NCBI GenBank assembly: GCA_000993115.1
Contig: LBVN01000018.1
Location: forward strand, 1 to 51,584
Direction: 5' to 3'
Length of the DNA stretch: 51,584 nucleotides
Origin: Candidatus Woesebacteria bacterium GW2011_GWB1_38_8b
Lineage (GTDB): Bacteria; Patescibacteriota; Microgenomatia; UBA8517
Part shown: piece after piece, positions 11,888 to 50,859 of the stretch
Layout: each line of letters begins with the position of its first letter
Numbering within the stretch: position 1 is the first letter of the stretch
Notes under the pieces: model-generated
Databases searched by the model: none
What the model was told of the DNA's origin: nothing
What the model saw: the letters and a program-made list of their open reading frames with translations, nothing else
Translations under genes and position numbers: made by a program

Positions 11888-11958
11888 TCACTATTTGCTT
11901 TTTTCAAAAAGATAAGCAGAGCTTGTCATTTTTCGCTTCGCTCAAAAAGATAATAAGC
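11888..11958 (+). repeat. Degenerate duplicate of the 3' end of the 11926 gene, overlapping a REP-like hairpin
   Basis: 11888-11917 (minus strand AYLFEKSK*) resembles 11926-11958 (AYYLFERSEK*); 11928-11950 ATTTTTCGCTTCGCTCAAAAAGA fits YTTCG-N5-CTCAR. Confidence 0.55.
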
Positions 11959-13684
11959 GGGCTCGCCAGAAGGGTAAGCAATTGCTTTAATTAAGTGAAG
12001 ACCTGCCGGTACTTTATTTGGCTCCATTATTAAATTAGTACCGACTTCTCTGTGCACTGCAATATACAGCGTTTTATCATCCAAAATCCTCGGTAGTGCA
12101 TAAAACCCTTCCTTTCCTACTTGACCGAAATAGTATTTGCCGGTGTGTTTAAGTGTTTCAAAACCGGCAATGTATTCGTCCTGCAAACCTTTTTGATAAA
12201 TTTCAGGAGGATACTGGTTCCATGCCAAGAAAAAGATCAGAGGCGGTTCATTGGCGTTTGAAATAATTATTTTGTCGTACTTGTCCTGCACCTCACGCAT
12301 TGCTTCAAATGTTTCTTTAAATCCTGAGTGCCACCACCTCTCACTATACCAGGGGTTATGGACCCAATAATTATGTTGATAAAAGGTAAAATTAATACTC
12401 ATAAGTACAAAAACGGTGAGTGCAAAAATATATTTCCAACGACCCGCTAAAACTTTATAAAAAACAACCAAACCGTACGATATTAAAAATATTAACGGTG
12501 GTAAAATTAAAATCAATCTCGTTGCATGAGTTCCTCCATCCCGTGTTATTGAAGCCGGAATTACTCCTAATAATATCCACAAAGCCATGACTGCAATAAT
12601 TCTTTTATTTTTATGAAGAAAGAAAAACAGACCAATTCCCAATAAAAGCCCGATTGCATCAGCTTTATACAACTGTCCCACTCCTTCAACAGAATGCCTA
12701 AGATTAATATCCCCTTTATTAAAAAGAAAATCAGATGAAAACGGAGCGAACATGTTATCAATTACTTTTTCACCCCAAAAAGTATATTTATTATGAGCCG
12801 CTCTAGCCATAGCTTTTTCAATAATTCCCCCGCCGTATTTTTGAACCATTTTCGCGTCATTAAGCCGCGCAAAACCTACGTCTCCTTCCATAGTCGGATC
12901 TGTAAAAACGCTCAAATAATTGAAACGCTGTGCTCCTCCTCCGAAAATTGTACTGTATGCAATCGGAATACCAAGAATAAGTCCTACAAGACATGTTTTT
13001 AATAAATCTTTTTTAGGTATTCGTATAATTTCTTTTCTGAAAAGAACTAAAAGCACGAGCATAAAGAGAGGCATAAATAATTTTGCGGTGCTATAAATCC
13101 AGGGGGTTAAAACAAAAAACGCAATAGCAATCCAAAGGTATTTACCACTGTCCTTTCGAAGTGACTTAAAAAAGAAATACAAACCGAAAAGTAGAAATGC
13201 CAGAAGCATTGTAACTTCAAATGCAGCCCGACTGTACTGTATATGCCACGGTGAAATTGTCAGCAGGAAAGCAGCAAGTAGTGCCCTGGGGTGATTTTTT
13301 TGATATTCGACTCCGTAACTTAAAATTTCTTTTACAGCCAAATACATCGCCCAAACCCCAAGTACACCAAAGATCATTGCGGGTAAGCGTACGCCAAGAG
13401 GACTTATTCCAAAAATCGCGACTGTGGGGACTTATTCCAAAAATCGCGACTGTGGGGACGGAAGAATATAAATACAAAGGAGTCCTCCACTCTGCAAGTG
13501 AATGAAAATGCATAGGCCAAGAATTTCCCGAATAATCTTTACCTGTTTTTAAAATCGAGTAAGCCTGATACCCAACGTCCAATTCGTCTCCAAAAAGTGA
13601 AACCGGCACTTCATTTATTTTCCAAAAACGAAGAAATGAAGCTAAAAGAAGTATTACTATTAATATTTTTTTGTTTTTATCCAT
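11926..13684 (-). pseudogene. PMT/ArnT-like GT-C glycosyltransferase split by a 28-bp tandem duplication
   Basis: ORF 13217-13684 carries FGDELDVGYQAYSILKTG...VAIFGISP; the frame resumes as LGVRLPAMIFG into ORF 11926-13377; removing one 28-bp copy restores the frame. Confidence 0.9.
13401..13456 (+). repeat. 28-bp perfect tandem duplication
   Basis: GACTTATTCCAAAAATCGCGACTGTGGG at 13401-13428 and 13429-13456. Confidence 0.97.
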
Positions 13685-13712
13685 AATTAATTTTCTAAAC
13701 CATTATAGTCTC

Positions 13713-13756
13713 TGACAATATGTTGTCATACTATTAATATAAAGTAACTACTTTAT
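13713..13756. promoter_or_regulatory. Two adjacent inverted repeats in an intergenic gap (operator or terminator candidates)
   Basis: TGACAA-TATG-TTGTCA (13713-13728) and ATAAAGTA-AC-TACTTTAT (13739-13756); minus-strand TATAAT at 13702-13707. Confidence 0.4.
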
Positions 13757-13763
13757 TGGTGTA

Positions 13764-14606
13764 CTAGTTGCGTACATTGTACCAATCTTTTCCCTTAAGA
13801 AACCTAACTATTTTTTGTAACTTTGTTGTAGTCCAGATTATAAAAGTAATTGCAGAGTGGTTTACCAAACCATGGTAAATTTTACTTGAAGTAATCAATC
13901 GCCTCCATTGATTTTGACCATCTGCGATGTTTTTTCCACTTTCACCATGATAGTGTATGACTCGAGAGTTAGGTAAATAAAATACTTTTAGTCCGTTTTT
14001 CCAAACACGCCTACAATAATCCAAATCCTCGTAATACATAAAATAACGCTCATCAAAAAATCCAATTTTTTCTAATGCCTTGGGTGTAATTAAAAAACTT
14101 GCTCCTACCACTGCATCCACCACTTGAGGGTTCTCACCGGATGGTGCATATTTATCTAAAATATTTTTATGTCCCAACCAAAATTGCTCTATCGTACGAA
14201 TAAGAGTCGGAAATCTAAAACACGAAGCTTGAACACTCCCATCCTTATTTAAAAGCTGTGAACCTATAACTCCTTCATCGGGATTACTTTCAGCAAAATC
14301 CAACAGCAAATCAATTGCGCCTTCTTTTACTAAAGTGTCGGAATTCAATATTAGTTTATATTTTCCCCCAGCTTTTTTTATTCCTAAATTACAAGCTTTT
14401 GAAAAACCAAGATTTTCTTTATTTTCAATAACGATAGTGTCCTTGTGGAAATTATTTTTTAAAGCCTTTACGCTACCGTCAGTTGAAGCATTATCAATTA
14501 CAATAATTTCAAAGCTTGATTTCGGTCTACTTTTTTTAATTGATGCGACACAATCAAGTACTAATTTTTTAGTGTTGAAGTTCGGTATTATTATCGAAAC
14601 ATCCAT
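13764..14606 (-). CDS. GT2 glycosyltransferase (WbbL/rhamnosyltransferase-like)
   Basis: SIIIPNFN, DNASTDGS, NLGFSKACN, LNSD, YEDLDYC motifs; start at MDVSII. Confidence 0.9.
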   Translation of the reverse strand: MDVSIIIPNFNTKKLVLDCVASIKKSRPKSSFEIIVIDNASTDGSVKALKNNFHKDTIVIENKENLGFSKACNLGIKKAGGKYKLILNSDTLVKEGAIDLLLDFAESNPDEGVIGSQLLNKDGSVQASCFRFPTLIRTIEQFWLGHKNILDKYAPSGENPQVVDAVVGASFLITPKALEKIGFFDERYFMYYEDLDYCRRVWKNGLKVFYLPNSRVIHYHGESGKNIADGQNQWRRLITSSKIYHGLVNHSAITFIIWTTTKLQKIVRFLKGKDWYNVRN

Positions 14607-14619
14607 AAAACAAAAGTTA

Positions 14620-15513
14620 CTATGAAAAGCTAGAAAATATTGCTTCGTCAGAGATTTTACTCTCTTTAACTTCCTTCCTCCTTCTTTTAAGTACAATGGG
14701 AAGTTTGTAAATTCCCATTACCAAAATTAGTATATAACCGGGGTGTTTTATTATTCTCTTTACCAAACCAATTAAATGTTTGCGCATATATACTTTTGAA
14801 GTTAAATTTTTCCAAATAAATAAAAGTTGGTTTCTTTCCAAAATCCGTTCTTTGTATTTTTTTGAAATTTTACTTGTTGTTGATTCATGAATATGTGTAA
14901 CGTGTGACTGTGGATTCCAAAGGATTATAAACCCCCGCTTTTGTGCCCGGTATGAAAGATCTAAATCCTCCCAATAATAAGGACTCAAAAGTTGTTCGTC
15001 AAAACTCCCCAACTCCAAAAATACTTTTCGCCGCATTATGCAGCTTCCCCCGTTTGCCCAAAATGTTTTTACTACATTTTGCGTTTCTTTTTGTCCAATG
15101 TGAACAACAAAACCGTCCATAAATTTTCCGTGACTTCCTCCATACCCTTTTTCATGAAATGATACTGCAAACACCTCTTTTTGTTCAAAAAGTTTCAATG
15201 AGGATTCTATAAAGTCTATATCAACCGAGACGTCGTTATTTAAAAGAGAAATGAATTCTCCTTTAGCCATTCTTACTCCTGTATTGATGGCTGAAGAAAA
15301 ACCACGGTTCACTGTATGTTTGATTGTCCGTATTTTGGGAAAATTCTTTTTTAGATAATCTATGGTTTTGTCCGTTGAACCATCATCAATCACTATTACT
15401 TCCAGGATATTATTCTTTGAATTTTCACAAGCACTCAAAATACTACCCAAATATTTTTCTAACAACTCTTTCCCGTTAAATGTCGGGATTAATATTGATA
15501 CTTTTTCGTTCAT
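14620..15513 (-). CDS. GT2 glycosyltransferase
   Basis: SILIPTFNG, DDGSTD, NRGFSSAIN, LLNND, WEDLDLS motifs; start at MNEKVS. Confidence 0.9.
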   Translation of the reverse strand: MNEKVSILIPTFNGKELLEKYLGSILSACENSKNNILEVIVIDDGSTDKTIDYLKKNFPKIRTIKHTVNRGFSSAINTGVRMAKGEFISLLNNDVSVDIDFIESSLKLFEQKEVFAVSFHEKGYGGSHGKFMDGFVVHIGQKETQNVVKTFWANGGSCIMRRKVFLELGSFDEQLLSPYYWEDLDLSYRAQKRGFIILWNPQSHVTHIHESTTSKISKKYKERILERNQLLFIWKNLTSKVYMRKHLIGLVKRIIKHPGYILILVMGIYKLPIVLKRRRKEVKESKISDEAIFSSFS

Positions 15514-17906
15514 ATACCCATAATCCAATCAGTAAGCTAACGGTAATTATACAGGACACTATACCTATTTTATACGACATTGATTTGTATTGAAAACTAA
15601 CTAAATGTTCACCTTTTGGGATAAAAATTGATTGAAATAAATAGTTTGCGACAAATATTTCGGAATCTTTTCCATCAACGTAAGCCTTCCAACCTGGATA
15701 ATATGATTCGGATAAAAACAAAAGCGAATCTTCATCCGAAGACGTATTAAATTTAATTTCATTATATCCTTTAACAATTTCTGTAACGCTGTACTTGGGG
15801 TTATTTTTCCCCAAGATTTCACGAGGTGTTTTATTAAGCAGCAGTATTGGATAATCGGACTTGATCATTTTATTTACCGAATCATTAATATTTTCAGCTA
15901 CAAAATAATTATTTGTTAACCAAACATAAGGAAGAGCTTTCTTGTTTTCAAATATAGTTATTTCACCTTCTCTAAATACTTCGAGGTATCGCAGGGAATC
16001 AACGCCCTTGTAGAAATCTCCCTTACTATTTATTTGACCATGAATGTCTTTTTTATAATCAACAATGTATTTAACAGCCGCATAGTTAATCGCTGACGAT
16101 TCAAAATAGTGTATTATCCCGTATCTTCCACCTAAATTATCAGTGTTACCCCAATCAACAATCGAATACCACCTCGAGTTTTTTTCAGGATATAACGGAT
16201 CATATCCTTCCGCCGAATACAGCTTGTAAGGCATAAACAAATTAGTTGGAATTCCGCCTGCAATTCGTGAAGTTCCGCTATTGTTACTTAAATAGTTGGT
16301 TATTTCTGTCTCGGGAAACAAGAACTTTATCGGTCCAAAAGCTGTATTTTTCCAGGCAAATCTTAGAATATCGGCAAGAGATAAAAGCATCATCAATACA
16401 ACCGTAAGGTAAAGGAAATAATTTTCGATCTTTCTACCTCCAAATACCAATTTAGCTTTGTAAAACACTGTTAAAACACACAAAAAGAATATCAATAAAA
16501 CTGTTTGAGGAATCATGTTTCGAAAAGAAACACTTAAGTTAGATATTGTTGGATAAGTAAAGTTTGTATATTGACTATTAAGCATTATCAATCTCAATAA
16601 CCCCATACTTATACAGCACAGTACCGTTATTAAAAATGTAATTTTTAATAACTTAGTGTCTTTTGATTTCAACCATTTGTCTATCCCATAAGCAGTTAGC
16701 GCTGCCAAACTAAAATCAACTAAATAAATAATCCTGCTTGCAGAACTTGTACTTAATCCGGGAATTTGTAATTTATAAGGTAATAGGCCAAAAGGAGTCG
16801 GAAATAAAAATATTAAACTTATAAATAACAGGAACCAAAAAAATTTCTCTAATATTGCTTTTTTAACAATAAACGAATAAAAAACATAAACTAAGGGAAT
16901 TATTCCCACGTAACTTATATATTCGTGAAAACCATATTTACCCCAATAATTTCTGGTAACAATATTTCCGAAGAAATCAGGCCAAATAAAATTTGTTATT
17001 TTTTCCCAACCCATCAAACCATAAAAATATTCTTTTATATATGGGTCATACTGTCTAACAGATTAGATATATCAAGTTCTTCAAGCTTTCTTTTTTTTGT
17101 TTTATTTCGAAGTAAATCAAATAAGCTCCAAACAATAAATAAGTAATACTTATAAACAGTGGGACTTGAAAATCTCCCGCAGTAAAAATCATAAAATATG
17201 TGGCGACTACTGCAATAACGTAAATTGCTTTTTTTTCTAAAAGCATTTTTCTTTCAAAATATAACAAAAGTGGTAACCAAAGTCCTGCATGACCACCTGT
17301 CGCAAATTCGAGCCAAGCAACCATATATCCTGAAAAAGCAAAAGTTATTCCACCCATAAGTGAGGCTATATTTCTTAAATTTAGACTTCTAAGAAAGACG
17401 TACATAAAAATCCCGGAAAGAAGTATTTGCGAGAAAACCAGGCTACTCCAGGCAATATAGTCATTAAAAAATACGTAAAGCAAATTCAGAGGATAGAGAG
17501 CAGCGGAATGAAGTGTAGCTAAAAAAGGAGTTCCATTAAACATGTATGGATTCCACAATGGGACTTTTCCAGCTCTCCAAAATTCACCGACCAACTTTCG
17601 CCATGGGTAAAACTGGGATATTGCGTCTGTAATTTCCTGATTTTTAATCGGTACTCCAGCTGGATAACCTTTCCATTTAACTTCAGACCATGGTATGTGA
17701 GCCCCGACCAAAGCATCTGTCGGTAGAGGTATTTTGTTTTCTAAAAATACGGGGTAAAAAAATAAGAGTGAAATTAGAATAAATATAAAGATCGGCCAAT
17801 ATTTTTTAAAGAATTGAAACAATCTTTTTTTCAAACTGAAGTAAACTGAACTTTTGACAGTCTTCGATTGTTTTTTCTGATAATTTTTGAAGTTTTTCTT
17901 TGTCAT
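15476..17906 (-). pseudogene. YfhO-like (GT-C) membrane protein split into two frames near 17060, probably by an internal deletion
   Basis: ORF 17055-17906 (PLWNPYMFNGTPFLA) ends ...LKNLIYLIC*; the other frame opens SVRQYDPY...PDFFGN and runs to a YfhO-type C-terminus (LSESYYPGWKAYVDG); true start uncertain. Confidence 0.75.
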
Positions 17907-18831
17907 TTATTAGCTCTACTGTTTTTTTAACAAGTTCATTTGTATTATGCCACAAATAACCGTTCACTTCATTTTGGATAGTTTCTTTATGGCCTCCTGC
18001 ATTATAGACAAGTGGAACACACCCACCGGCCATAGACTCAACTGTACTGATTCCAAAATGTTCAACTTTCATAGGATCTTTTAATTCATCTATTTCAAAA
18101 CCGCTTGCCGACCAAAATAATTTTGATTTTCCATACAGACTATAAAGTGTTTTTACATCCGGGCTCTCAATAATTTCAATGTTTAAATCTTTAATCATAT
18201 TTTTTAAGCTTTTAATATATTCATGCGCGCCAACTTCAGTTCCTCCAGCCAATATTAATTTCCAATTTTTGATTCCCTTTTTAACAAGTTTTTGAAATGC
18301 ACTTATCAAAACGTCCTGTCTTTTTGCCTGAGTGAGTTGAGAAAATCTTCCGACCGACAAAATAACATTCTGTTTATTAAGAGTTCTGATTTTATCGACA
18401 TCTACAGGCGGATAAATTACCTCGGAGTTAACACCATACTCTTTATCTATGAAATTTTTTGTAAACAAACTGTTAACAACAATATGGTTTATTCTATAAA
18501 GCTTCATTTTGTTTAGTAGGCTTCTTCCGGATACATTCTGGAAAGGAAATTGAAAATGTAAAATATTATTTCGCGAATGAAGAATCGGAATGCTGCCATC
18601 CGATACCCAAAAACACAAGTCATATCCTTCACCTTTTTTTATATCGTCAATTGTATTTAGTCCGTTTAACGTTATACCGAATCTTTTCTCAAATTTATCT
18701 AAAATTGATGAGTCCTTCCAAAATATGTTCACGTCAAAACCGTTATTAAGTAAGACTTTCGCAAAAGACAAAGTGTATCGTTCTCCTCCACCCAATGTAT
18801 CCAAATATGGATTGTAAATAGCCGCTCTCAT
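17806..18831 (-). CDS. GT4 family glycosyltransferase
   Basis: LGGGERY, YPPVD, ILSVGRF, EHFGISTVESMAGG (EX7E) motifs; start overlaps the upstream stop (TAATG). Confidence 0.92.
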   Translation of the reverse strand: MRAAIYNPYLDTLGGGERYTLSFAKVLLNNGFDVNIFWKDSSILDKFEKRFGITLNGLNTIDDIKKGEGYDLCFWVSDGSIPILHSRNNILHFQFPFQNVSGRSLLNKMKLYRINHIVVNSLFTKNFIDKEYGVNSEVIYPPVDVDKIRTLNKQNVILSVGRFSQLTQAKRQDVLISAFQKLVKKGIKNWKLILAGGTEVGAHEYIKSLKNMIKDLNIEIIESPDVKTLYSLYGKSKLFWSASGFEIDELKDPMKVEHFGISTVESMAGGCVPLVYNAGGHKETIQNEVNGYLWHNTNELVKKTVELINDKEKLQKLSEKTIEDCQKFSLLQFEKKIVSIL

Positions 18832-19598: not shown

Positions 19599-19600
19599 TA

Positions 19601-20512: not shown

Positions 20513-20517
20513 AAAAA

Positions 20518-21408: not shown

Positions 21409-21411
21409 TTT

Positions 21412-24592: not shown

Positions 24593-24598
24593 GAATCT

Positions 24599-24607: not shown

Positions 24608-24627
24608 ATATTATGGTTAAAGGGGAA

Positions 24628-29208: not shown

Positions 29209-29216
29209 ACTTTTTG

Positions 29217-29251
29217 CTTACTACCTACTTCTTACAACTTACATCCTATTT
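29217..29251 (+). repeat. 5 x 7-nt degenerate array (CYTACNN) abutting a stop codon
   Basis: CTTACTA CCTACTT CTTACAA CTTACAT CCTATTT; 31/35 identical to 48571-48605. Confidence 0.8.
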
Positions 29252-29998: not shown

Positions 29999-30012
29999 AT
30001 TTTTTGTAATAA

Positions 30013-31500: not shown

Positions 31501-31513
31501 ATAACTCCAATAA

Positions 31514-32974
31514 TTAAAGCCGTTTTCGCCTTTGCACAGTTATTTGGCCAAATTTTGATTCTTCTAAAACTTCACCGATTCCCTTTTGTCTTTCCAGCCA
31601 AGCTTGCAGTCTTTGAGGGTTGGGGGGGTCTGCTTCAAAAAGTGTATACAAAACCGGTAAGTTTTCAGTTTTTACTAGACCACACAAAGTTGGTTTACAG
31701 CTCTGAGCTTGTCGAAGGGTTCCCTGCCATAAAAACAGATAATCGTAGGAGTGGGGGATAACGGGAGGGACATAAACATCAACATTAAACTTCTGACTGT
31801 ATTTTTGGGCATCATCATAAACCCAATTCACAGCTTGAAGTTGATCTTCGATTGCAATTGGCCTTGTCGCAACAGTTGCCGTTAAATAATTCTTAATAGG
31901 TACTAAGTTTAAATTTGCAAAGTAATAAAAATACAAAGCAACAATTATAAAACCACCCCAATGTTTCGTCAGCTCTCCCATACCAAGTGCAAAAAATAAA
32001 ATAAGCGGCATAAAATAACCTATCGTGTAATAATCGTAAATATTTCCGTAATTCCCCTGAAAAAGTGTGTAGCCGACAATCGGCGTTATAAAGAAAATTG
32101 CAAACAGAATTAAATGTTTTTTAAATTTAGGTAAATATCCAAATAACATTGAAGCGGAAATTGTTGCAAGAGTAGTGATTAACACTCCGGTTCCTAAAAA
32201 TATTTTTCCGGAATAAACACCCCAAAAATATTTGGCTCTTTCCTCTAATATAAACTTTGTAATACCGCGGAATGCTTTTTCGCCAAGCAGTAAATCCAAA
32301 AAATTTTTAAATAGTAAGTTGTCGTGGCGGAAATTAAATAAAATCTGGGGAGCCAGTGTTGCCAAAAAAAACATCCCAGCAATTAAAATATATTTAAAAG
32401 GCGGTAATTTTTTTCGCTGCCAGATGCTAAACACAAAAAACAAAGGTATATAAAAGACAGCACTTGCCGATTCAAAGTGAAGTGATACTCCGATTGTTAG
32501 AACTGCTAAAACCCAAAATAAATATATTTTCTTTTTCTCACCTATTGTAATTTCCCATAAAAACCAAAAGAGTAGTGTGGAAAGAAGAAGCATCGGAGTA
32601 GGGTTTGAAAGCCAACGGGAAAGTGTAAAAATATTATAAGAAAACGCGGCAATTGTGGCAGCGATAAGACCGGTAATTCTAGAGTGCATCTTGGTGCCCA
32701 AGACGTAAAGCATAAATATAGCCATTACCGTTGTAAACGAAAGAAATACCGCCGGGTAAGCAGGATTTCCGCGGCCGATTAAATAAAAAGGTGCGATTAG
32801 GTAATAATAAAACGGTCCTAAAAATATTCCCTTAAGTCCTGTAATCGGACCGATTAAAAAGGGTTTATGATTATGCCATAAATCCAAAATTGCACAAAGT
32901 AAAATATAGATTAAAGGATGGGTAAAAACTTCCTTTCTAATTTTCCCATAAACATCTGAGGCAAATTTCTTCAT
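31514..32974 (-). CDS. PMT/ArnT-like GT-C protein apparently lacking the FLR...D(E/Q) loop (in-frame deletion near 32885); may be non-catalytic
   Basis: LGPFYYYL and WLSNP motifs present, but LLCAIL joins directly to DLWHNHKPFLIGP, about 25 residues shorter than paralogs 30013 and 33984. Confidence 0.7.
   Translation of the reverse strand: MKKFASDVYGKIRKEVFTHPLIYILLCAILDLWHNHKPFLIGPITGLKGIFLGPFYYYLIAPFYLIGRGNPAYPAVFLSFTTVMAIFMLYVLGTKMHSRITGLIAATIAAFSYNIFTLSRWLSNPTPMLLLSTLLFWFLWEITIGEKKKIYLFWVLAVLTIGVSLHFESASAVFYIPLFFVFSIWQRKKLPPFKYILIAGMFFLATLAPQILFNFRHDNLLFKNFLDLLLGEKAFRGITKFILEERAKYFWGVYSGKIFLGTGVLITTLATISASMLFGYLPKFKKHLILFAIFFITPIVGYTLFQGNYGNIYDYYTIGYFMPLILFFALGMGELTKHWGGFIIVALYFYYFANLNLVPIKNYLTATVATRPIAIEDQLQAVNWVYDDAQKYSQKFNVDVYVPPVIPHSYDYLFLWQGTLRQAQSCKPTLCGLVKTENLPVLYTLFEADPPNPQRLQAWLERQKGIGEVLEESKFGQITVQRRKRL
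31701..31719 (-). repeat. REP-like hairpin copy inside a CDS (encodes TLRQAQS)
   Basis: Minus strand CCCTTCG-ACAAG-CTCAGAG, the same core as the repeats at 38975 and 39291. Confidence 0.65.
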
Positions 32975-33987: not shown

Positions 33988-35639
33988 TGCGTGTGTATTA
34001 ACTTATAAACTATAACACCTCCAACTTCCCACTCCCCATCAATTTTACTCCAACCAAAATTGGCAATTTCGGCTTTCGGAGAATGAGTTGGATCGCATTC
34101 AATTTTTGGCATTTCGCAAACTACAAACAATTGGTTAGCAACCGTATCAGAAAGCGTAAGCGGATCAATGTCGAAAACGGGTTGTCTTTCTTTTTCAAGA
34201 AAATATTGGTATCCGTCTTCGTAATTTTGTTTTGCAATAACTGCTAAATTAAATTTTTCATTTCCTGATTCCGATTTAATTTTATCCGCAACAATTTGCG
34301 CTCTTTTCATCTGCATATTCGGTCGGTATTTAAGCGGATTCTCCCGCAAGTTAACACAAATTAAATACGCAAAAACCAAAATCAACAAAGCTTTTACCCA
34401 AACTCCGTACTTTTCCCACAGATGAGAATAAAATCCTCCGAACAAAATAAAAGGTGCCGCAAAAATAAAACCAAAATAATGATCATAAATATGTTGTTTA
34501 TAAAGCCCAAGACCCAAAATTGCAAAAAATAACCAGACAGTCAGTATAAATAATGAGGAAATAAAATTGTTGTCGGAGATTTCTTTATCATCACCACGTA
34601 ATATTTTAAATAGGTTTTTCCAAAATTTAAGAAGATAAAGAATAATCAAATCAAAAATTCCGAAGGCAATCCAAAGTCCCGCAGTTGCATTCTTCCCCCC
34701 AACAATTCTTGTTATGAAATCGTCTTTCCAGATTGGAAACATGTTAGGAATGGATTTCCAGGGTTTTATTGAAACGGTAGTTTGACGCTCACTAAAAAAT
34801 TTTGAAATTGCTCCGAAATTCTGCCAACCATGACGAGCGTCAAAAATGACCAATGGAGACATAAGAAATAGAAACACTACAGTACCTATTAACGAATACT
34901 TTATAAAATTAGAAAGTTGAGATTTGTTATTTAGGCTTTTTCCGGAATTACCAATTACTAATTTATAATTCCTAACTAATTTCAAAATAACTATGAACCA
35001 AAAAATAAATATTGTCGGCAGTAGAAGAAGCCCTAAGTAGTGGGACTGAAGTACAAACGAAAAAGAAATTCCCAATACTACCAACCATTTATAATTTGCT
35101 TTTTCCCAGACTTGCCAAAGGCTGTAAATACATAAAAGTGAAAAAAACGGCATGATGTTTGGGTTCCAGGAAGATTTTGAGTAAATAATCACAACCGGGG
35201 ATATTGCATAAAGTGTTGCAGCCGCGAGTGCCCCATAATGGATATTTTTTACATTTCTCGAAGCAAACCATTCACGGGTTATAAACCAGACCATAAACAC
35301 GGTAACAGTTCCCATAAGCGCAATCAAAATTGCCGGACCAACAGGAGAAAAGTTCGAAAGAAGAAGTGCGGGAGCCATTAAGTAGTAATACAGCGGACCC
35401 AAATACATGTTTCCGATTGATGTTCCGGGCCCAATTAAAATCGGGTCAAAATTTACAAGCAACCTTCGGACAACGATAGCATCCCGTCCCTCGTCTCCCA
35501 AAAAAGTCATGTAATCGCCAATTTTATAAAGCCGGAGAAACGCGCTGATTAGTAAAATAATTGCAAGAAGTACTGTCTCTTTCTTATGCTCAATAATCCA
35601 AGTCTTAATACTCAATGCATAAATTTCTAATTTTTTCAT
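33984..35639 (-). CDS. PMT/ArnT-like GT-C membrane glycosyltransferase
   Basis: FLRLYKI..F LGDEGRD, LGPLYYYL, SSWNPN, QSHY motifs; ATGA overlap with the upstream gene. Confidence 0.85.
   Translation of the reverse strand: MKKLEIYALSIKTWIIEHKKETVLLAIILLISAFLRLYKIGDYMTFLGDEGRDAIVVRRLLVNFDPILIGPGTSIGNMYLGPLYYYLMAPALLLSNFSPVGPAILIALMGTVTVFMVWFITREWFASRNVKNIHYGALAAATLYAISPVVIIYSKSSWNPNIMPFFSLLCIYSLWQVWEKANYKWLVVLGISFSFVLQSHYLGLLLLPTIFIFWFIVILKLVRNYKLVIGNSGKSLNNKSQLSNFIKYSLIGTVVFLFLMSPLVIFDARHGWQNFGAISKFFSERQTTVSIKPWKSIPNMFPIWKDDFITRIVGGKNATAGLWIAFGIFDLIILYLLKFWKNLFKILRGDDKEISDNNFISSLFILTVWLFFAILGLGLYKQHIYDHYFGFIFAAPFILFGGFYSHLWEKYGVWVKALLILVFAYLICVNLRENPLKYRPNMQMKRAQIVADKIKSESGNEKFNLAVIAKQNYEDGYQYFLEKERQPVFDIDPLTLSDTVANQLFVVCEMPKIECDPTHSPKAEIANFGWSKIDGEWEVGGVIVYKLIHTQ
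34903..34980. repeat. Imperfect inverted pair of heptamer arrays inside a CDS
   Basis: AATTACC AATTACT AATTTAT AATTCCT AACTAAT (34946-34980); 34906-34924 matches the reverse complement of 34946-34964 at 14/19. Confidence 0.55.
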
Positions 35640-36346
35640 CTTATCTGCCACCAAAGTTTTAACAAATCACGAAGACTTCGAAGAATTACTTTCAAATCCG
35701 CTCCGGTTTGGTGTCCAAATTTTCTAGGATAATGATTTACTTTCACTTCCGCAAATTTAAATCCGTGCCGCTGCGCCTTAACCAGCATCTCAATTTGGGT
35801 AACTTTCTCCTCCCCCACCAATGGCAATACTTTTTTATATACTTCTTTTTTAATAAGTTTAAATCCGCAGGAGTAATCAGTTACCCGAAGACCCAAAAGT
35901 ATTCTTGGCAGAATTTTTGACCAAACCAGCGTAAAAAGTTTGCGAATGAACGGATCTGCCCTGTTACCCCTAATTCCCAAAACCAAGTCTGCGTCAGTTT
36001 CTTTTTGTTTTTCTATAAACAATTTTATTTCCGAGAAATCAAATTGTCCGTCGGCGTCGGCAAATGCAACCCATTTAAATTCTGAGTTTTCATAACCGGA
36101 CTTAAGTGCCCCACCATAGCCTCTGTTTGGGCTGTGGTGAATAACTTTTATCCTTTTATCGGCTTTTGCTAAACCATCGGAAATTATTCCTGTTTTGTCG
36201 CGTGATCCGTCATCAACAATAATTATTTCCCATTTCGAAGAAATTTCCTCAAGCACTTTTTTTGCGTCACCAATCGTCTTTTTAATATTTTTTTCTTCGT
36301 TATACGCCGGAAAGAAAGCTGAGATTTCGTCAATTAATTTCGCCAT
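35636..36346 (-). CDS. DPM1-like polyprenol-phosphate glycosyltransferase (GT2)
   Basis: PAYNEE, DDGSRDKT, NRGYGGA, FADADGQ, DYSCGFK motifs. Confidence 0.9.
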   Translation of the reverse strand: MAKLIDEISAFFPAYNEEKNIKKTIGDAKKVLEEISSKWEIIIVDDGSRDKTGIISDGLAKADKRIKVIHHSPNRGYGGALKSGYENSEFKWVAFADADGQFDFSEIKLFIEKQKETDADLVLGIRGNRADPFIRKLFTLVWSKILPRILLGLRVTDYSCGFKLIKKEVYKKVLPLVGEEKVTQIEMLVKAQRHGFKFAEVKVNHYPRKFGHQTGADLKVILRSLRDLLKLWWQIR

Positions 36347-36400
36347 ATTAACCCCAAGTCTAACATAAAGAAGGCTGACGTTTCCACAAAAACTTTATCC

Positions 36401-36429
36401 TTGTCAATTCAGGCTCAAAGGGTTATCAT
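36401..36429 (+). promoter_or_regulatory. Sigma70-type promoter for the 36439 gene
   Basis: TTGTCA (36401-36406), 17 bp, TATCAT (36424-36429); ATG 9 nt downstream. Confidence 0.6.
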
Positions 36430-36438
36430 CAAAAGTAA

Positions 36439-37590
36439 ATGAAGAAATTTTTTAAAGATCTTCCTCCTGTTCTGTTTTTTTCAATTATCCCAATAGTTTT
36501 AGTTTGGATTCCATTTATTTTTAGGCTTGATTCATTTTGGAATATACCTCTTACAAAAAATGGCTTGGCAACAATTGTCGCTAATTACGACGGACCGCTT
36601 TATTTAATTATTGCGAAAACTTTGTATAACACGGAAAGCATTAAAACCATGTTCTCTGTTCCCCTTCCGGTTGAATATTACGCGGCACATTTTCCACTAT
36701 TTCCAATCCTAATTAGATTATTTTCGTTTATCGGAAATTACCCTTATGCAATGCTCACGGCTACCGTGCTTTCATCGGTTTATGCAATGTACTTTTTCAA
36801 AAAATTAATTTCCCAATTTGTACGTGAAGAAAATATAGTCTGGATGATGCTTATTTTTGCAATCCTTCCCGCCAGGTGGCTAATTGTACGATCTGTCGGA
36901 TCCCCCGAGCCGCTTTTTGTCGGAAGTATAATAGCATCACTTTTTTATTTTAAGAATAAAAAATATCTTCTGGCCGGTATATTCGGCGCAATTGCACAGA
37001 TTACAAAATCCCCAGGGATATTACTTTTTGCAGGATACATTGGATTCTTTATTTTTGAAGCAATTTACAACGCATCGATAAGTCACAAAACCGTAAATTT
37101 TAACTTCGTTCGCAAACTACCGCTTTTTTTGATTCCCTTATCGCTTTTGGGGGTGTTTTTTCTCTATTCAAAAGTATACGGGAATTTTTATGCATATTTT
37201 GACTCAGGCGACAACATCCACCTTTTCTTCCCACCGTTTCAGATTTTTAATTACAGCCAGCCGTGGGTAAATACTTTTTGGTTGGAGGAAGTAGTTTTAG
37301 TCTACATCATCGCACTCTTGGGAATTTTCAAGCTTTTTGAGAAAAAAGAATTTGAGTACGCCATATTTACAGCCGTATTTTTTACAACCATTATATTTGT
37401 TTCACACCGCGACATTATCCGCTATGCATTACCGATTGTTCCCTTTATACTAGCCGGGTTCTCAGAAACTCTCACGAAAAAATCATTCAGATTGTTACTT
37501 TTAATAGTAGCTTTACCGATTTATTTATTTTCCCTAGCCTACATTTCCCAAAATGTAATGCCAATCTCCAACTGGGCTCCTTTCCTTTGA
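36439..37590 (+). CDS. GT-C mannosyltransferase-like membrane protein (PIG-V type)
   Basis: NYDGPLY, AHFPLFP, GSPEPLF, DIIRY motifs; polytopic. Confidence 0.7.
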   Translation: MKKFFKDLPPVLFFSIIPIVLVWIPFIFRLDSFWNIPLTKNGLATIVANYDGPLYLIIAKTLYNTESIKTMFSVPLPVEYYAAHFPLFPILIRLFSFIGNYPYAMLTATVLSSVYAMYFFKKLISQFVREENIVWMMLIFAILPARWLIVRSVGSPEPLFVGSIIASLFYFKNKKYLLAGIFGAIAQITKSPGILLFAGYIGFFIFEAIYNASISHKTVNFNFVRKLPLFLIPLSLLGVFFLYSKVYGNFYAYFDSGDNIHLFFPPFQIFNYSQPWVNTFWLEEVVLVYIIALLGIFKLFEKKEFEYAIFTAVFFTTIIFVSHRDIIRYALPIVPFILAGFSETLTKKSFRLLLLIVALPIYLFSLAYISQNVMPISNWAPFL

Positions 37591-37633
37591 GCTTCGAGAC
37601 CCCCTGAAAAGATAAGTCGGATACACTTTTTAT

Positions 37634-37879
37634 ATGATTGCAGACAGAATTGCTGAAAAATTAGAGAGTCTGCTGGAAAGATCCGGAGTCCTACCTCCAC
37701 TGCAACCTATACAAATACACTTGAGACCACACCTAAGTTCAAACGACTTACTTTTTCTTAGCCAAGCCAAGAGAACTATCGATGGAAATCCTGGTCCTGT
37801 TGTAGAAGCTTCAATCCACCACCCAAGGTCAAAACTACGGAGAGCTGAAATGCAAACACACCTAGATGAAACATTTTAA
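37634..37879 (+). CDS. Hypothetical protein (81 aa)
   Basis: ATG-started ORF filling the gap, co-oriented with neighbours; no recognisable motif. Confidence 0.4.
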   Translation: MIADRIAEKLESLLERSGVLPPLQPIQIHLRPHLSSNDLLFLSQAKRTIDGNPGPVVEASIHHPRSKLRRAEMQTHLDETF

Positions 37880-37884
37880 TATAT

Positions 37885-38103
37885 ATGGCGCAATCTGGAG
37901 TTAGTACTACTATATCAAGACGTTGGAGAAATAAAGAGTCATATACGGAATTTACCGGAAGCAAGTGTGGCAATTGTGGCGACAGAAGAATTCCAGCAAG
38001 AGATGTGTGTCCGAATTGCGGAAACGACAAAATAATCAGGGACAGAGTTCTAGAAAGAGAATCTAGGTTTGCTACTCAACCTCCTGTGCAAAGTGGTAGT
38101 TAA
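37885..38103 (+). CDS. Stand-alone zinc-ribbon protein (DUF35 N-terminal-like)
   Basis: RRWR...GSKCGNCG...PARDVCPNCG (two CxxC); no OB-fold domain follows. Confidence 0.75.
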   Translation: MAQSGVSTTISRRWRNKESYTEFTGSKCGNCGDRRIPARDVCPNCGNDKIIRDRVLERESRFATQPPVQSGS

Positions 38104-38944
38104 TTTCGGATTTTACCTGAAGCGGATTAAATGCTACATTTTTTCGCTTTAACTCCAAATACTTTTCGTAACCGGTTAATGCCTCGTAAACACCTGCTCT
38201 AAATTCTTTTTTGTCTTTTACCAAACCGAACTTTTCCAAATCCAGAAATTCATAATCCTGGAGTTTATAGCTTTGGAAATTATCTAACTTCGACAATTTT
38301 TGGGGCAATTTAATCTGAAATACTTCAACCCGAACATCTGCAATGTCCAAATACATAAATGGTTTTGGCCGTGTTGGAATTAATGAAAGAGGTAAATTTC
38401 TGTCAATCGCAAGCTCAGTAAATACTTCCTGCTGTAAAATCCTTAAAATCCCATCTTCGCGCTTTTCATTAATTTTTGAAAAACCCATAGGAATAGAAAT
38501 TGAAGAAAATGGTTTTCCGTAATAAGACCTTGGTGTTGAAACATCACGGCCTGTTAATACCATTTTCTGGCTATTAAAAGGCGTAATAATCAATCCCGTC
38601 CCAAGCCTCCTTGTAACCCCTTCCTTGATGTAAGAAAGCACACGGTAAAGAGTAACCGCAGAAGTTATAAAACTGGGTGGCATTTTTTTATAGAGTTTAT
38701 CCAAAGGGATGTCCTCGTGAACCATCTTGGCCAAAAAATTAACAACCTCACTTAATTTACTGTTTGGTCCGGCAGCTTTTATAATTCCCCACTTATCCAA
38801 AATTCTTTGGTATTGGGCGTAAGATATAGGAATGTCGAGATGATGATATCTGAAAACTTCATCTACCGATCCAAGCTTAAGGTATTCGCGAACAAGAAAT
38901 TTATTAAATTCAATCTCATTGTTTACAGGAAATTTTGCTGTCAT
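38072..38944 (-). CDS. Hypothetical protein with a helical N-terminus and a degenerate Nudix box
   Basis: 290-aa ORF; G154-x5-E160-x7-R168-I-L-Q-Q-E173 resembles GX5EX7REUXEE. Confidence 0.6.
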   Translation of the reverse strand: MTAKFPVNNEIEFNKFLVREYLKLGSVDEVFRYHHLDIPISYAQYQRILDKWGIIKAAGPNSKLSEVVNFLAKMVHEDIPLDKLYKKMPPSFITSAVTLYRVLSYIKEGVTRRLGTGLIITPFNSQKMVLTGRDVSTPRSYYGKPFSSISIPMGFSKINEKREDGILRILQQEVFTELAIDRNLPLSLIPTRPKPFMYLDIADVRVEVFQIKLPQKLSKLDNFQSYKLQDYEFLDLEKFGLVKDKKEFRAGVYEALTGYEKYLELKRKNVAFNPLQVKSEINYHFAQEVE

Positions 38945-38974
38945 ATTGTATTATATTATTAATCATTCCCTTTT

Positions 38975-39000
38975 GTCATTCTGAGCAAAGCGAAGAATCT
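38975..39000 (+). repeat. Left REP-like hairpin repeat
   Basis: GTC-ATTCT-GAGCAAAGCGA-AGAAT-CT; stem ATTCT/AGAAT. Confidence 0.85.
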
Positions 39001-39003
39001 ATT

Positions 39004-39288
39004 GTGTATTACGTGTACATACTAACAAACAAGTACAATAATGTCCTATACACGGGTGTTACTAACAATATAGTTCGAAGGGTATATGAACATAAGAAGA
39101 AATACATTAAAGGGTTTACGAGCAAATATAATGTTAATAAATTAATATATTTTGAAATATTTAGCTCCAGTATCGAAGCAATCAGTCGCGAAAAACAGAT
39201 CAAAGGTTGGACAAGAATAAGAAAAATTAACCTAATTTTAAAAAATAATCCCAACTTTGAAGATCTGTATAGTGATTTAATCAAATAA
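39004..39288 (+). CDS. GIY-YIG nuclease family protein (YhbQ-like, single domain)
   Basis: YYVYILTN...LYTGVTNN..RR..EH, FTSKY, AISREKQIK motifs; GTG start inferred at 39004. Confidence 0.92.
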   Translation: MYYVYILTNKYNNVLYTGVTNNIVRRVYEHKKKYIKGFTSKYNVNKLIYFEIFSSSIEAISREKQIKGWTRIRKINLILKNNPNFEDLYSDLIK

Positions 39289-39290
39289 CT

Positions 39291-39316
39291 AGATCCTTCG
39301 TTATACTCAGGATGAC
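39291..39316 (-). repeat. Right REP-like hairpin repeat (inverted)
   Basis: AG-ATCCT-TCGTTATACTC-AGGAT-GAC; stem ATCCT/AGGAT. Confidence 0.85.
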
Positions 39317-39320
39317 TATG

Positions 39321-40460
39321 TCACTTTTTGCTCCAGGGAAGTTTCCAGGTCTTCCAGATTACCGCGTTATACATGAAATAGTTATACGGAAGTACTAATA
39401 ACAAAATAATAATGGGCAGAAGCAGTTGTCTTTTGTCCGCACCCAGGAAATAAACACCTATTGTTCCGAAAACCGCCTGAATTGCGAGGGCTCCGAGTGA
39501 CGTTCCGTTAAACTGCAGGAATTTTGAAAGTAATTTTCCGACTCCTGTTATTTTCTCCGACTTAAAAGTCCAGAGATTATTTAAAATAAAATTAGAAATT
39601 ATCGCCATTTCTGTCGCCGCCGCCCAGATTCCCCATTCGGGAAATGCAGTCCGGCCAAAAAGCTCCAGTCCTAGCGCATTAACGACGTAACCAATAAAGC
39701 CTACAGTACCAAATTTTATAAATCTGGCTTTATCTTTTATACCCAAATAAGTTGCCAACTTGAGTGATGCCAATGTTTCCGCTTGGTTAAATTTAGACTT
39801 GTCAGTAATTCTGGGACGAAATTCTAAAGGGACTTCAACGGTTTTCTTGGAATTTTTAATACTTTGATAAATTAGATCAATTTTGTACGCAAACCGCGTT
39901 GGCTCTTTTAGGTTATCTAAATCAATTTTGTCTAAAACACCTTTGACTTTTGTAAGTCTAAAACCCGTTGTTAAATCATGAATTCCCGGTTTAAGAAGTA
40001 CTATTCTTATATAAAGATTTCCAAAATAACTTACAGCTTTTCTGAAAAGCGCCCACTCTTTCGGAATTGAGCCACCTTTTACATAACGCGACCCGATAAC
40101 ATATTCTGCGCCAGCTAAATATGCATCCACCATCGGCTTTACAAATTCAGGCGGATGTTGACCGTCAGCATCCATTTCCATCACGGCATCAGCTTCCAAT
40201 TTATCAACGGCATATTTAAATCCGGAGATATAAGCATTTCCCAATCCTTTGCCTGTTTGTTGGACAATATGAAGGTTTTTTCTTTCCTTCATTTCTTCTT
40301 CGATTATTTCGGTCATACCGTCCGTGGATTTGTTGTCGGCAACAAGAAGATGCATGTCTGCATCTATTTTTGGAAATACTTCGTCAAACAAAGTATTGAC
40401 CATCTTTTTAATATTTTCCGCCTCATTCCAAGCGGCCATAACAATCACTACTTTATCCAT
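39321..40460 (-). CDS. DPM1-like polyprenol-phosphate glycosyltransferase fused to a C-terminal GtrA domain
   Basis: WNEAEN, DNKSTDG, GLGNAY, EMDADGQH, IGSRY, DLTTGFR; C-terminal RFIKFGTVG...VN...NFILNNLWTF. Confidence 0.92.
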   Translation of the reverse strand: MDKVVIVMAAWNEAENIKKMVNTLFDEVFPKIDADMHLLVADNKSTDGMTEIIEEEMKERKNLHIVQQTGKGLGNAYISGFKYAVDKLEADAVMEMDADGQHPPEFVKPMVDAYLAGAEYVIGSRYVKGGSIPKEWALFRKAVSYFGNLYIRIVLLKPGIHDLTTGFRLTKVKGVLDKIDLDNLKEPTRFAYKIDLIYQSIKNSKKTVEVPLEFRPRITDKSKFNQAETLASLKLATYLGIKDKARFIKFGTVGFIGYVVNALGLELFGRTAFPEWGIWAAATEMAIISNFILNNLWTFKSEKITGVGKLLSKFLQFNGTSLGALAIQAVFGTIGVYFLGADKRQLLLPIIILLLVLPYNYFMYNAVIWKTWKLPWSKK

Positions 40461-40466
40461 ATGCTA

Positions 40467-40495
40467 ATGTTAACTAAGAATTAGTATAAATACAA
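40467..40495 (-). promoter_or_regulatory. Sigma70-type promoter; -10 lies 6 nt from the ATG at 40460 (leaderless)
   Basis: Minus strand TTGTAT, 17 bp, TAACAT, TAGCAT, ATG. Confidence 0.6.
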
Positions 40496-40505
40496 GAAAT
40501 AAGTA

Positions 40506-40778
40506 TTAAGTTGTGGTTTTTGTATTATTTTCAATAAATGCCAAGAGTTCGGTTGAATTACTGGGAACAAACATTCGGTTTCTGAGAATGTGTTCTTTAT
40601 CCGGAGTAGCCACGAGGTCGCCCCTAAGTGTGCATCGTTTATAAAGTGGACAACCCAGCTCCCTGCAGAACCCAGTATCATCTCCAATATGAGAATCACG
40701 ACCATCAAATTGTATTTTTGCATACCCATTATTTTTACGGGCTACTTTTAAAACCTTGCATACCGTATTTTCTATCAT
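40506..40778 (-). CDS. Hypothetical protein (90 aa, four Cys)
   Basis: ATG-started ORF filling the gap, co-oriented; no recognisable family. Confidence 0.45.
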   Translation of the reverse strand: MIENTVCKVLKVARKNNGYAKIQFDGRDSHIGDDTGFCRELGCPLYKRCTLRGDLVATPDKEHILRNRMFVPSNSTELLAFIENNTKTTT

Positions 40779-40798
40779 TTCTAAATTTTCAAAATTAA

Positions 40799-40870
40799 CT
40801 ACTCACACCGAATAGCCTCAATACTTCGACAGGTTCAACATTCCGGCTATTCGTAACGAATTGCCTCAAT
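40799..40870 (+). repeat. 24-bp direct repeats (19/24) duplicating the permease 3' end around a degenerate REP-like core
   Basis: 40799-40822 (IEAIRCE*) vs 40847-40870 (IEAIRYE*); spacer ACTTCGACAGGTTCAACATTCCGG. Confidence 0.75.
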
Positions 40871-50841: not shown

Positions 50842-50859
50842 GAATTACCTATTAAAGGA

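Follow-up and report, generated by a model that had tools for sequence, protein, structure and literature searches.

A GIY-YIG nuclease gene between two inverted GTC-tagged hairpins: a probable Ssn/SRM cassette in a Woesebacteria-like genome

Within the 51,584-nt stretch of DNA analysed in this study (the window), which originates from a 0.9-Mb candidate-phyla-radiation (CPR, Woesebacteria-like) genome, a hairpin–ssn–hairpin cassette of 342 bp was found at positions 38975–39316. It is located between a GT2 gene (39321–40460, minus strand) and a gene encoding a hypothetical protein of 290 aa (38072–38944, minus strand). The ssn-type gene itself (39004–39288, plus strand) starts with GTG, ends with TAA and encodes a single-domain GIY-YIG nuclease of 94 aa, as deduced from a Pfam profile search and an alignment of homologues. 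PF01541 matched with an E-value of 4.7e-18 (residues 25–99 of a longer ORF) and was the only Pfam family detected; it covers nearly the whole protein, and no DNA-binding extension is present. All 23 columns that are invariant in 28 homologues are kept, including Y5, Y16, R26, E29, H30 and E63. The NCBIfam search assigned no family to the protein, and the PDB sequence search yielded a single, weak match, UPF0213 protein BH0048 (1ZG2; E 9e-4).

In order to evaluate the hairpins, a covariance model trained exclusively on copies in other genomes (R1) was run on the window and the genome. The left repeat (38973–39002, plus strand; 45.4 bits, E 5e-10) and the right repeat (39289–39318, minus strand; 40.1 bits, E 1.4e-8) were both recovered at full length, confirming that two hairpins bracket the nuclease gene, as the first-pass annotation of this DNA had reported. 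The left copy is composed of a TGTC tag, the stem strand ATTCT, G·A/A·G, GC, the loop AAA, GC and AGAAT, followed by C (TGTC-A[TTCT…AGAA]T-C). The right copy carries an AGTC tag, the stem ATCCT/AGGAT and the inner pair GT/AC (AGTC-A[TCCT…AGGA]T-C), and its differences from the left copy are compensatory. Each stem comprises seven Watson–Crick pairs and two G·A pairs, with a 3-nt loop, an A·T/T·A opening and a tail. Both copies have the GTC tag at the 5′ side and a C after the palindrome, and they are inverted around ssn with both tags pointing outward. The left repeat ends 1 nt short of the GTG start, and the right one begins 1 nt past the ssn stop and ends 2 nt short of the convergent GT2 stop codon. 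Some homologue ORFs also have hairpin-derived peptide tails at their ends, such as MSEANF… or …DSSLRSE.

The predicted ssDNA fold energy of the hairpins is weak (−1.9 kcal/mol, z about −0.3) and no better than that of shuffled sequences; their reality was deduced from conservation and covariation and not from fold energy. A tagged hairpin lies at most 200 nt away in 73 of 80 homologue loci, representing more than 15 phyla, and 48 of the 80 show an upstream gene-strand copy paired with a downstream opposite-strand copy. Over these loci, orientation is biased upstream (73 plus versus 28 minus) as well as downstream (76 minus versus 40 plus). Among 116 distinct copies, 105 are fully Watson–Crick at the three variable stem positions, compared with 35.5 in shuffles (maximum 48), and both-sided changes were found at each position. 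In an alignment of 23 sequences, 96% of the cells are paired versus 19–52% with a slid partner, and the covariation score was reached by none of 500 shuffles. The stem interior contains a conserved tandem G·A (…GAG-loop-CGA…) instead of Watson–Crick pairs. Short palindromes in AT-rich sequence might arise by chance or composition; the fold energies, the 79 matches that a loose tag-plus-stem finder yields in this AT-rich genome, and two further sites in the window that are individually compatible with chance (11929, E 0.29 genome-wide; 31703, E 2.7) fit such an artefact. For the two flanking copies, however, a chance origin is refuted by their E-values under a model trained elsewhere and by the layout recurring in many phyla, and this explanation is extremely improbable.

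Another explanation lets the hairpins act as RNA: the upstream copy would control ssn translation from the 5′-UTR, the downstream copy would serve as terminator or mRNA stabiliser, and the inversion would be incidental. Ending 1 nt before GTG, the left hairpin must be in the transcript, and a role as RNA elements downstream of genes has been put forward for REP-type repeats (PMC3733652). However, the downstream copy on the mRNA is the reverse complement, in which C·U and U·C take the place of the G·A pairs. Moreover, few G·U/G·T pairs occur in the outer stem (about 5 of 348 cells), as expected of a DNA palindrome, neither a terminator-like T-run nor an Rfam family match was found, and solo and arrayed copies occur distant from ssn genes in other genomes. 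Furthermore, SsnA does not bind RNA (PMC11893778). Altogether, a function as RNA elements is regarded as improbable.

The first-pass annotation had listed five hairpin instances and proposed that they form an undescribed, dispersed non-RAYT family that remodels gene 3′ ends on insertion, the GIY-YIG protein being its possible mobiliser or passenger. The flanking copies at 38973 and 39289 are certain and the instance at 11929 is borderline. The latter, a solo core-only hairpin (11929–11947, minus strand), scored 17.7 bits over model positions 7–25 only (E 0.016 in the window). Its core, TTTTT-GA-GC-GAA-GC-GA-AAAAA, has no GTCA/TC tags in matching orientation and encodes the C-terminal …LFERSEK-stop of the PMT_2 ORF 11926–13377; it could represent a degenerate SRM or have arisen by chance. 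PMT_2 orthologues end with …FYLF plus 3–5 variable residues and carry no hairpin. At the same place, a diverged tandem duplication of the last PMT_2 codons and stop was identified by repeat search (11888–11953, minus strand; 28 nt, 79% identical; 11888–11915 and 11926–53, 38-nt period), comprising the active end YLFERSEK-stop and a downstream relic, YLFEKSK-stop-stop. The string match CTGAGCTTGTCGAAG (31703–31717, plus strand; 9.6 bits) lacks support as a family member, being not significant in R1, untagged and imperfect in its stem; said to lie in-frame in a CDS, it is situated inside ORF 31514–32974 on the opposite strand. Rejected was the reported ‘degenerate’ instance at 40824–40837, which fails even the pattern of the first-pass annotation and has no R1 match at E ≤ 10. 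This site sits between 24-nt direct repeats (40799–40822 and 40847–70; 79% identical, spacing 48) that duplicate the 3′ end of a MacB/FtsX-like gene, and also within a 14-nt inverted repeat. Both duplications reported at gene 3′ ends are real, and only the one at 11929 holds a plausible family member.

Concerning motif frequency, the pattern YTGAG-N5-CGAAR, which was chosen post hoc, has four exact matches in the window (11931 minus, 31703 plus, 38981 plus, 39296 minus) versus 0.38 expected, a number reached by none of 100 shuffles; genome-wide, 13 matches compare with about 6.7 expected when the chance rate of the window is scaled up. The remodelling of gene ends was not borne out: short tandem duplications are common in the genome (44 versus about 1 in a Markov control) and also occur without an R1-type hairpin, e.g., at 50773/50810 (3′ end of ORF 49880–50776) and 13398/13426 (within the 5′ portion of the PMT_2 gene). 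In favour of the proposed dispersed family, the hairpin–nuclease link is real, the 11929 core lies exactly on a duplicated gene end, and the peptide tails mentioned above are derived from hairpins. Against it stand the two non-members among five instances, the hairpin-free duplications, an ERSEK tail within normal orthologue variation (e.g., EKERS-stop), the mere two certain copies in 0.9 Mb and the fact that the system has already been published. Altogether, this model is considered decidedly improbable.

The genome-wide R1 search yielded two copies at E ≤ 0.01 and three further matches at E 0.03–0.7; the hairpins are thus present at very low copy and do not form the dispersed family initially supposed. 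The third-ranked match, a solo at C8:46015 (E 0.03), has a stem of 8 bp with a loop of 4 nt and fully fits the description of CGTC-tagged REPs, and two others are core-only matches (E 0.3–0.7). In other host genomes, numbers of R1-type copies range from 1 to at least 150.

REP/REPIN sequences are small hairpin repeats of IS200/IS605-type Y1 HUH transposases (RAYT) and carry a GTAG tag. The cassette resembles REP/RAYT systems in its inverted hairpin repeats around the gene of a small enzyme that is here predicted to be specific for ssDNA hairpins, and in the solo and doublet copies dispersed in some genomes. In contrast, the window enzyme is a hydrolytic GIY-YIG nuclease and not an HUH tyrosine transposase, and its hairpin tag is GTC and not GTAG; no strand-transfer chemistry is known for GIY-YIG enzymes. 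The sole PF01797 (Y1_Tnp) match of the genome (C3:33666–33890) has no R1 match nearby on contig C3 and carries its own GTAG-type palindrome, CAAGGGATWATCCCTTG, unlike the ssn hairpin; no Y1 gene is flanked by R1 hairpins. The earlier view that the hairpins belong functionally to a single-domain GIY-YIG protein, and not to a RAYT, was corroborated.

The pairing of a GIY-YIG nuclease with GTC-tagged hairpins, previously taken for an undescribed system, is an already known one, described for the Ssn nucleases (CDD cd10448) and their NTS/SRM hairpins (Chenal et al. 2025, Nat Commun 16:2388; PMC11893778), and such repeats had been catalogued as CGTC-tagged REPs that lack a transposase (PMC3733652). 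The former study covers the repeat–gene–repeat layout and the REP/RAYT comparison for GIY-YIG nucleases of about 94 aa, and its text contains no mention of CPR or Patescibacteria. Like the Ssn/NTS-SRM systems, the window locus encodes a 94-aa single-domain protein that retains the catalytic residues Tyr, Tyr and Glu (Y5, Y16 and E63 correspond to Y6, Y17 and E64 of N. meningitidis SsnA and are invariant in the 28-sequence alignment), has inverted, IS-like repeats starting with (C/T)GTCA-T and ending with A-TC around the gene, and belongs to a widely but patchily distributed group. Homology is defined there by E < 1e-10 to N. meningitidis SsnA (CAX49033.1); here, it was judged by proxy, using GIY-YIG genes that have exact matches to the published NTS consensus on their flanks. 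This consensus is present in 62 of the 301 Burkholderiales genomes searched and gave zero matches in the control. The window protein and three such genes share 42–48% identity across 90 of the 94 residues, with E-values of 1e-27 to 1e-30.

Differences were also observed. Unlike the continuous GC-rich stem of NTS/SRM repeats, the window hairpin has the conserved tandem G·A and a 3-nt loop, and its 0.9-Mb CPR host carries two to three copies, not hundreds. The published SRM motif, HGTCWYN(0-2)YYVSBRHN(0-5)WNVSBRGN(0-2)RNCYNB, has no match in the genome, each flanking copy being two substitutions short; as a check of the implementation, it found 3–4 copies in each NTS-type locus, and it recovers only 4 copies across the 80 loci of the window gene's sub-clade. 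The motif mismatch, the G·A stem interior, the 3-nt loop and the weak fold energy weigh against an Ssn/SRM assignment. A further relative is represented by the CGTC-tagged REPs (CGTC-1 to CGTC-4; Di Nocera, De Gregorio and Rocco 2013, BMC Genomics 14:522; PMC3733652), which come without a transposase, have 8–9 uninterrupted pairs and 4–5-nt loops and were reported from five phyla. Shared with these are the terminal (C/T)GTC tag, the A·T, T·A stem opening, the short unpaired tail, the lack of a tyrosine transposase link and the possibility of copies inside genes. The window hairpin differs from that description by a stem broken by G·A/A·G, a loop of 3 nt, a right tag of AGTC and minimal copies; with two copies at E ≤ 0.01, this genome does not contain a repeated family of the kind that CGTC-tagged REPs represent.

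Comparison with relatives revealed how the cassette is placed. In seven same-family relatives, the distance from the GT2 stop to the start of the 290-aa-gene homologue is −55 to +38 nt, and neither ssn nor an R1 match was found at this junction; in the window, the gap measures 376 nt. Judged by these empty junctions, the 342-bp cassette is an apparent clean insertion into a tight gene junction. Furthermore, an ssn homologue is present in only 10 of 40 relatives, with at most 61% identity, whereas other phyla reach 68%. The nuclease gene and its hairpins are probably a horizontally acquired copy of the published Ssn nuclease/hairpin-repeat system. Based on the shared hairpin–gene–hairpin layout and the identity of 42–48% to NTS-flanked genes, the locus is assigned, with a probability of roughly 80%, to the Ssn/SRM group, i.e., an ssn gene with two inverted cognate GTC-tagged hairpins forming an IS-like cassette inserted at the GT2/hypothetical-gene junction of a CPR genome.

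SsnA of N. meningitidis and three homologues that have been tested act on ssDNA only, recognise one hairpin strand and cut on the 5′ side of the tag, at a distance of a few nucleotides (PMC11893778). Being homologous to these enzymes, the window protein would likewise bind and cleave ssDNA. It is predicted to bind the hairpin only as ssDNA and only on the strand reading GTCA-stem...stem-TC, and cleavage would occur on the 5′ side of the tag at the same short distance. Given the inversion of the two copies, the top strand would be cut shortly beyond the left end of the cassette and the bottom strand shortly beyond its right end. The role may consist in selfish spread of the cassette, in cutting of incoming or replicating hairpin-bearing ssDNA, or in both; with only two to three copies in the genome, it is difficult to envisage ‘ssDNA restriction’ directed at self-like DNA. 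A bolder proposal can be put forward tentatively, at less than even odds: the 342-bp unit may be an autonomous mobile element with the 94-aa hydrolytic GIY-YIG ssDNA nuclease as its sole protein and the G·A hairpin as a distinct pan-phylum specificity class, the insertion, the patchiness and the 60–70% cross-phylum identity being footprints of active transposition or homing and not of domesticated ssDNA restriction.

Results obtained for the Ssn/SRM cassette add ultra-small CPR genomes to the hosts of the Ssn/hairpin system and reveal a hairpin subtype with a tandem G·A interior, used by a large sub-clade from more than 15 phyla. Since the published SRM search motif misses this subtype, motif-based surveys undercount Ssn–repeat pairs. 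Moreover, the clean 342-bp insertion at a junction that measures 1–38 nt or overlaps in seven relatives is new: movement of the repeat–gene–repeat unit as a block, a hypothesis only in Chenal et al. 2025 (PMC11893778), receives direct comparative evidence from this precise insertion. The G·A-interior recognition sequence is also a candidate for a further specificity of ssDNA-cutting tools.

In the window, contig C18 of a host genome of 0.90 Mb (33 contigs, approximately 37% G+C), the open reading frame (ORF) at 39004-39288 (+) starts with GTG and encodes a protein of 94 aa consisting of a GIY-YIG domain alone (PF01541, E 4.7e-18), in which the catalytic Tyr, Tyr and Glu residues are kept according to a 28-sequence alignment. 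The gene, referred to here as ssn, is bracketed by two hairpins. The left one, TTGTCATTCTGAGCAAAGCGAAGAATCTAT (38973-39002, +), ends 1 nt upstream of the ORF, and the right one, the reverse complement of TAGTCATCCTGAGTATAACGAAGGATCTAG (39289-39318, -), begins 1 nt downstream of it. Both are composed of a GTC tag, an A, a 4-pair stem, G·A/A·G, two further pairs, a 3-nt loop, the return arm and T-C, and their stems differ by compensatory changes (ATTCT/AGAAT vs ATCCT/AGGAT; GC/GC vs GT/AC). The protein was not assigned to any NCBIfam family, and the PDB sequence search returned UPF0213 as its sole, weak match. Rfam, applied at gathering threshold, matched nothing in the whole window, and ARAGORN reported zero tRNA genes there. 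A hammerhead ribozyme, prompted by the string CUGA…GAA, was rejected since the core is devoid of the NGA of CUGANGA and no Rfam match was obtained.

Single-domain GIY-YIG proteins of approximately 94 aa constitute the Ssn family (CDD cd10448; Chenal et al. 2025, PMC11893778). Neisseria meningitidis SsnA binds its hairpin repeat NTS (CGTCATTCCCGCGMAVGCGGGAATCYRG) only as single-stranded DNA and on one strand only, and cuts a few nucleotides upstream of it; cutting depends on the nucleotides 5' of the palindrome, and binding on the C that follows it (PMC11893778). The related motif SRM was found near 71% of Ssn homologues, on both sides in 42%, and the NTS-ssnA-NTS arrangement was likened by the authors to an insertion sequence and to REP/RAYT (PMC11893778). 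Even earlier, Di Nocera et al. (2013, PMC3733652) had catalogued the repeats as REPs that carry a CGTC/TGTC tag and are 'lacking a dedicated transposase'. The pairing of nuclease and hairpin was thus already published and the repeats catalogued, so that the proposal of the first-pass annotation that the locus is a candidate for an undescribed system has to be withdrawn.

In order to relate the window protein to this family, NTS-flanked genes served as a proxy for the N. meningitidis SsnA sequence. The exact NTS consensus was present in 62 of 301 Burkholderiales genomes, reversed-pattern controls giving zero. A search of six NTS-rich genomes with the window protein gave a match in three (E<=0.001), and NTS copies were located near all three genes. 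Over 90 of 94 residues, their products are 42-48% identical to the window protein (E 1e-27 to 1e-30), and one of the genes (locus L094) also shares the layout of the window, with an upstream (+) and a downstream (-) hairpin. Judged from these sequence comparisons via the proxy genes, the window gene is a true Ssn homologue.

More than 5000 database relatives of the window protein were detected at E<=1e-10, the best of which are 60-70% identical and originate from unrelated phyla. Starting from the alignment of 28 relatives, 80 genomic loci were fetched that together represent more than 15 phyla, including Calditrichota, Gammaproteobacteria, Woesebacteria, Daviesbacteria, Cyanobacteriota, Bacteroidota, Bacillota, Chloroflexota, Omnitrophota, Planctomycetota, Nitrospirota and others. 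In most of them, the gene is preceded by GTCAT-NNN-GAG-[loop or extra stem-loop]-CGA(A)-NNN-ATC and followed by the reverse complement of this sequence. A tagged hairpin was located within 200 nt of the gene at 73 of the 80 loci, and the pair of an upstream gene-strand and a downstream opposite-strand hairpin at 48; the counts by orientation were 73 (+) vs 28 (-) upstream and 76 (-) vs 40 (+) downstream. The published SRM motif matched nowhere in the host genome, the window copies being two substitutions short of it, and only four copies were found across the 80 loci, yet three to four per NTS-type locus. The window hairpins differ from SRM as defined by their tandem G·A interior and 3-nt loop, a subtype characteristic of a large sub-clade that spans multiple phyla.

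Nearest-neighbour folding energies of the two flanking hairpins (-1.9 kcal/mol, z approximately -0.3) were not distinguishable from those of shuffles. Nearest-neighbour parameters credit tandem G·A pairs little, and the structural case therefore stands on covariation. Since MAFFT misaligned a 1-nt bulge that characterises the TTGC/AGCAA class, covariation was counted by an anchored regular expression with the invariant anchors fixed. All three free stem positions were Watson-Crick paired in 105 of 116 distinct copies (shuffles: mean 35.5, maximum 48). Two to three kinds of base pair occurred at each position (T·A/C·G/G·C; G·C/C·G/A·T; C·G/T·A), with G·T being rare. Moreover, 96.3% of cells were paired in a 23-row alignment, vs 19-52% with the partner slid; 16 cells represented double-sided changes, and the covariation score was reached by 0 of 500 shuffles.

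The first-pass annotation had grouped five sites of the window into one dispersed family. Its pattern gave four window matches where 0.38 were expected; as this pattern had been designed after the fact and matched only 13 times genome-wide, a covariance model (R1) was built instead from 23 copies, all from other genomes, and run on the window, with filters off, and on the whole genome. Only the two ssn-flanking copies were certain, namely the left (38973-39002, +; 45.4 bits, E 5e-10) and the right one (39289-39318, -; 40.1 bits, E 1.4e-8). The site at 11929-11947 is a doubtful, core-only candidate (17.7 bits) that covers model positions 7-25, with both tags absent (E 0.016 in the window, 0.29 genome-wide). 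The one at 31703-31717 is a string match (9.6 bits, E 2.7), for which alignment of the window paralogues was uninformative regarding an insertion, their C-terminal regions being too diverged, and at 40824 the window scan gave no match. Outside the window, only two sites approached significance in the whole-genome run. The solo TGTC-tagged hairpin TTGTCATGCTGAATTTCTTCAGCATCTGA on contig C8 (C8:46015-46043; 21.2 bits) forms a clean 8-bp stem with a 4-nt loop (-6.8 kcal/mol, z -3.6) and fits the description of the CGTC-1 REP better than the ssn-flanking copies do. A short CTTCG…CTCA hairpin (C16:19041-19057; 16.2 bits) starts within a tRNA 3' end. A loose 'GTC + 5-bp stem' finder, which gave 79 matches in this AT-rich genome, was too permissive and was left out of this census. 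With two certain and up to three doubtful copies, the hairpin therefore does not represent a dispersed family in this genome. In other hosts, R1-type copy numbers ranged from 1-4 up to at least 150; all R1 copy numbers are lower bounds because the model holds the unbulged class only, owing to the misplaced bulge.

The proposed link between hairpin and nuclease was borne out: the hairpins go with the GIY-YIG gene and do not track a RAYT/IS200 transposase. The genome encodes one Y1_Tnp-like protein (IS200/RAYT-like, 229 aa, 37 bits; contig C3:33200-34500, locus L089), and no R1 hairpin was found near its gene. This gene is flanked by another palindrome, CAAGGGATWATCCCTTG, next to GTAG/CTAC; CGAGGG variants also occur, and in-frame copies lie inside the gene. 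Three strict-pattern copies of this palindrome are present on C3, two at the gene and one 16 kb off at C3:17108. The Y1_Tnp gene and its palindromes are a minimal GTAG-type REP/RAYT unit, and each repeat type therefore goes with its own enzyme.

Approximately 11 small stand-alone GIY-YIG genes are encoded in the genome, among them those at C17:4818-5036, C16:18782-19000, C6:22205-22408, C26:5438-5641, C15:9046-9258, C1:84164-84307, C21:1286-1450 and C26:8400-8603. Ten of them are located outside the window, and of these, seven have a tRNA gene at a distance of 3-72 nt (the genome contains 43 tRNAs in 0.9 Mb); at several, a partial copy of that tRNA was observed on the far side of the GIY-YIG gene, e.g., the 5' half of tRNA-Leu (C21) and the 3' end of tRNA-Asn (C15). 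The tRNA-adjacent genes look like tRNA-lodged GIY-YIG cassettes; tRNA is unmentioned in PMC11893778.

Another claim of the first-pass annotation concerned the remodelling of gene ends. The duplications themselves are real. The last approximately 38 nt of a PMT_2 gene, including the stop, are repeated in tandem with 79% identity; the active copy reads YLFERSEK-stop and the relic YLFEKSK-stop-stop, relic differences being mostly G/C-to-A/T. Likewise, the last 24 nt of a MacB/FtsX-like gene were found again 48 nt downstream (40799-40870). No sign of the Ssn hairpin as their cause was seen, and perfect duplications elsewhere, at 50773/50810 (gene 3' end) and 13398/13426 (near a gene 5' end), contain no ssn hairpin. 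Genome-wide, 44 short-range tandem duplications were counted vs approximately one in the Markov control, several of them on gene ends. PMT_2 orthologues end in …FYLF plus three to five variable residues (e.g., EKERS-stop), so that nothing sets the hairpin-coded tail apart at the protein level.

At the stop of ORF 49880-50776, a perfect 37-nt tandem repeat (50773-50846) holds the GTAG-tagged palindrome GTAG-AAATTCT-TTC-AGAATTT-GT. A frameshift in the 5' part of a PMT_2 gene would result from the perfect 28-nt tandem repeat at 13398-13453; the ORF of this gene comprises 483 aa, whereas the open frames in relatives span 560-600 aa. Such perfect duplications could be assembly artefacts. The co-directional run at 4065-33987 (-) comprises at least nine paralogous ORFs of 480-590 aa with very divergent C-terminal regions; all three ORFs scanned matched Pfam PMT_2 (dolichyl-phosphate-mannose/ArnT-like glycosyltransferases), one just below the curated cut-off (24.7 vs 26.1 bits).

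In seven same-family relatives, the GT2 gene (39321-40460, -) adjoins the gene for a 290-aa hypothetical protein (38072-38944, -) with gaps of -55, -40, 1, 1, 6, 9 and 38 nt, and neither ssn nor an R1 match was found at these junctions. The corresponding gap in the window amounts to 376 nt, 342 nt of which represent the hairpin-ssn-hairpin cassette (38975-39316). Among 40 relatives, no more than 10 encode any ssn homologue (4 of 24 within the family), the best showing 61% identity, which is below the 68% reached in another phylum. A second sample contained the same strain with the cassette at the same position. Comparison of these junctions indicates that the cassette was acquired by insertion. 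The outward tag TGTCAT of the left hairpin (ATGACA on the minus strand) and a TATAAT 18 nt on yield an 11/12 sigma-70-like match at 38950-38979 (-), directed into the 290-aa gene, which the insertion separated from GT2; by this consensus match only, cassette insertion may have created a hybrid promoter.

The system itself is already known; worth recording are the hairpin subtype and the host lineage.
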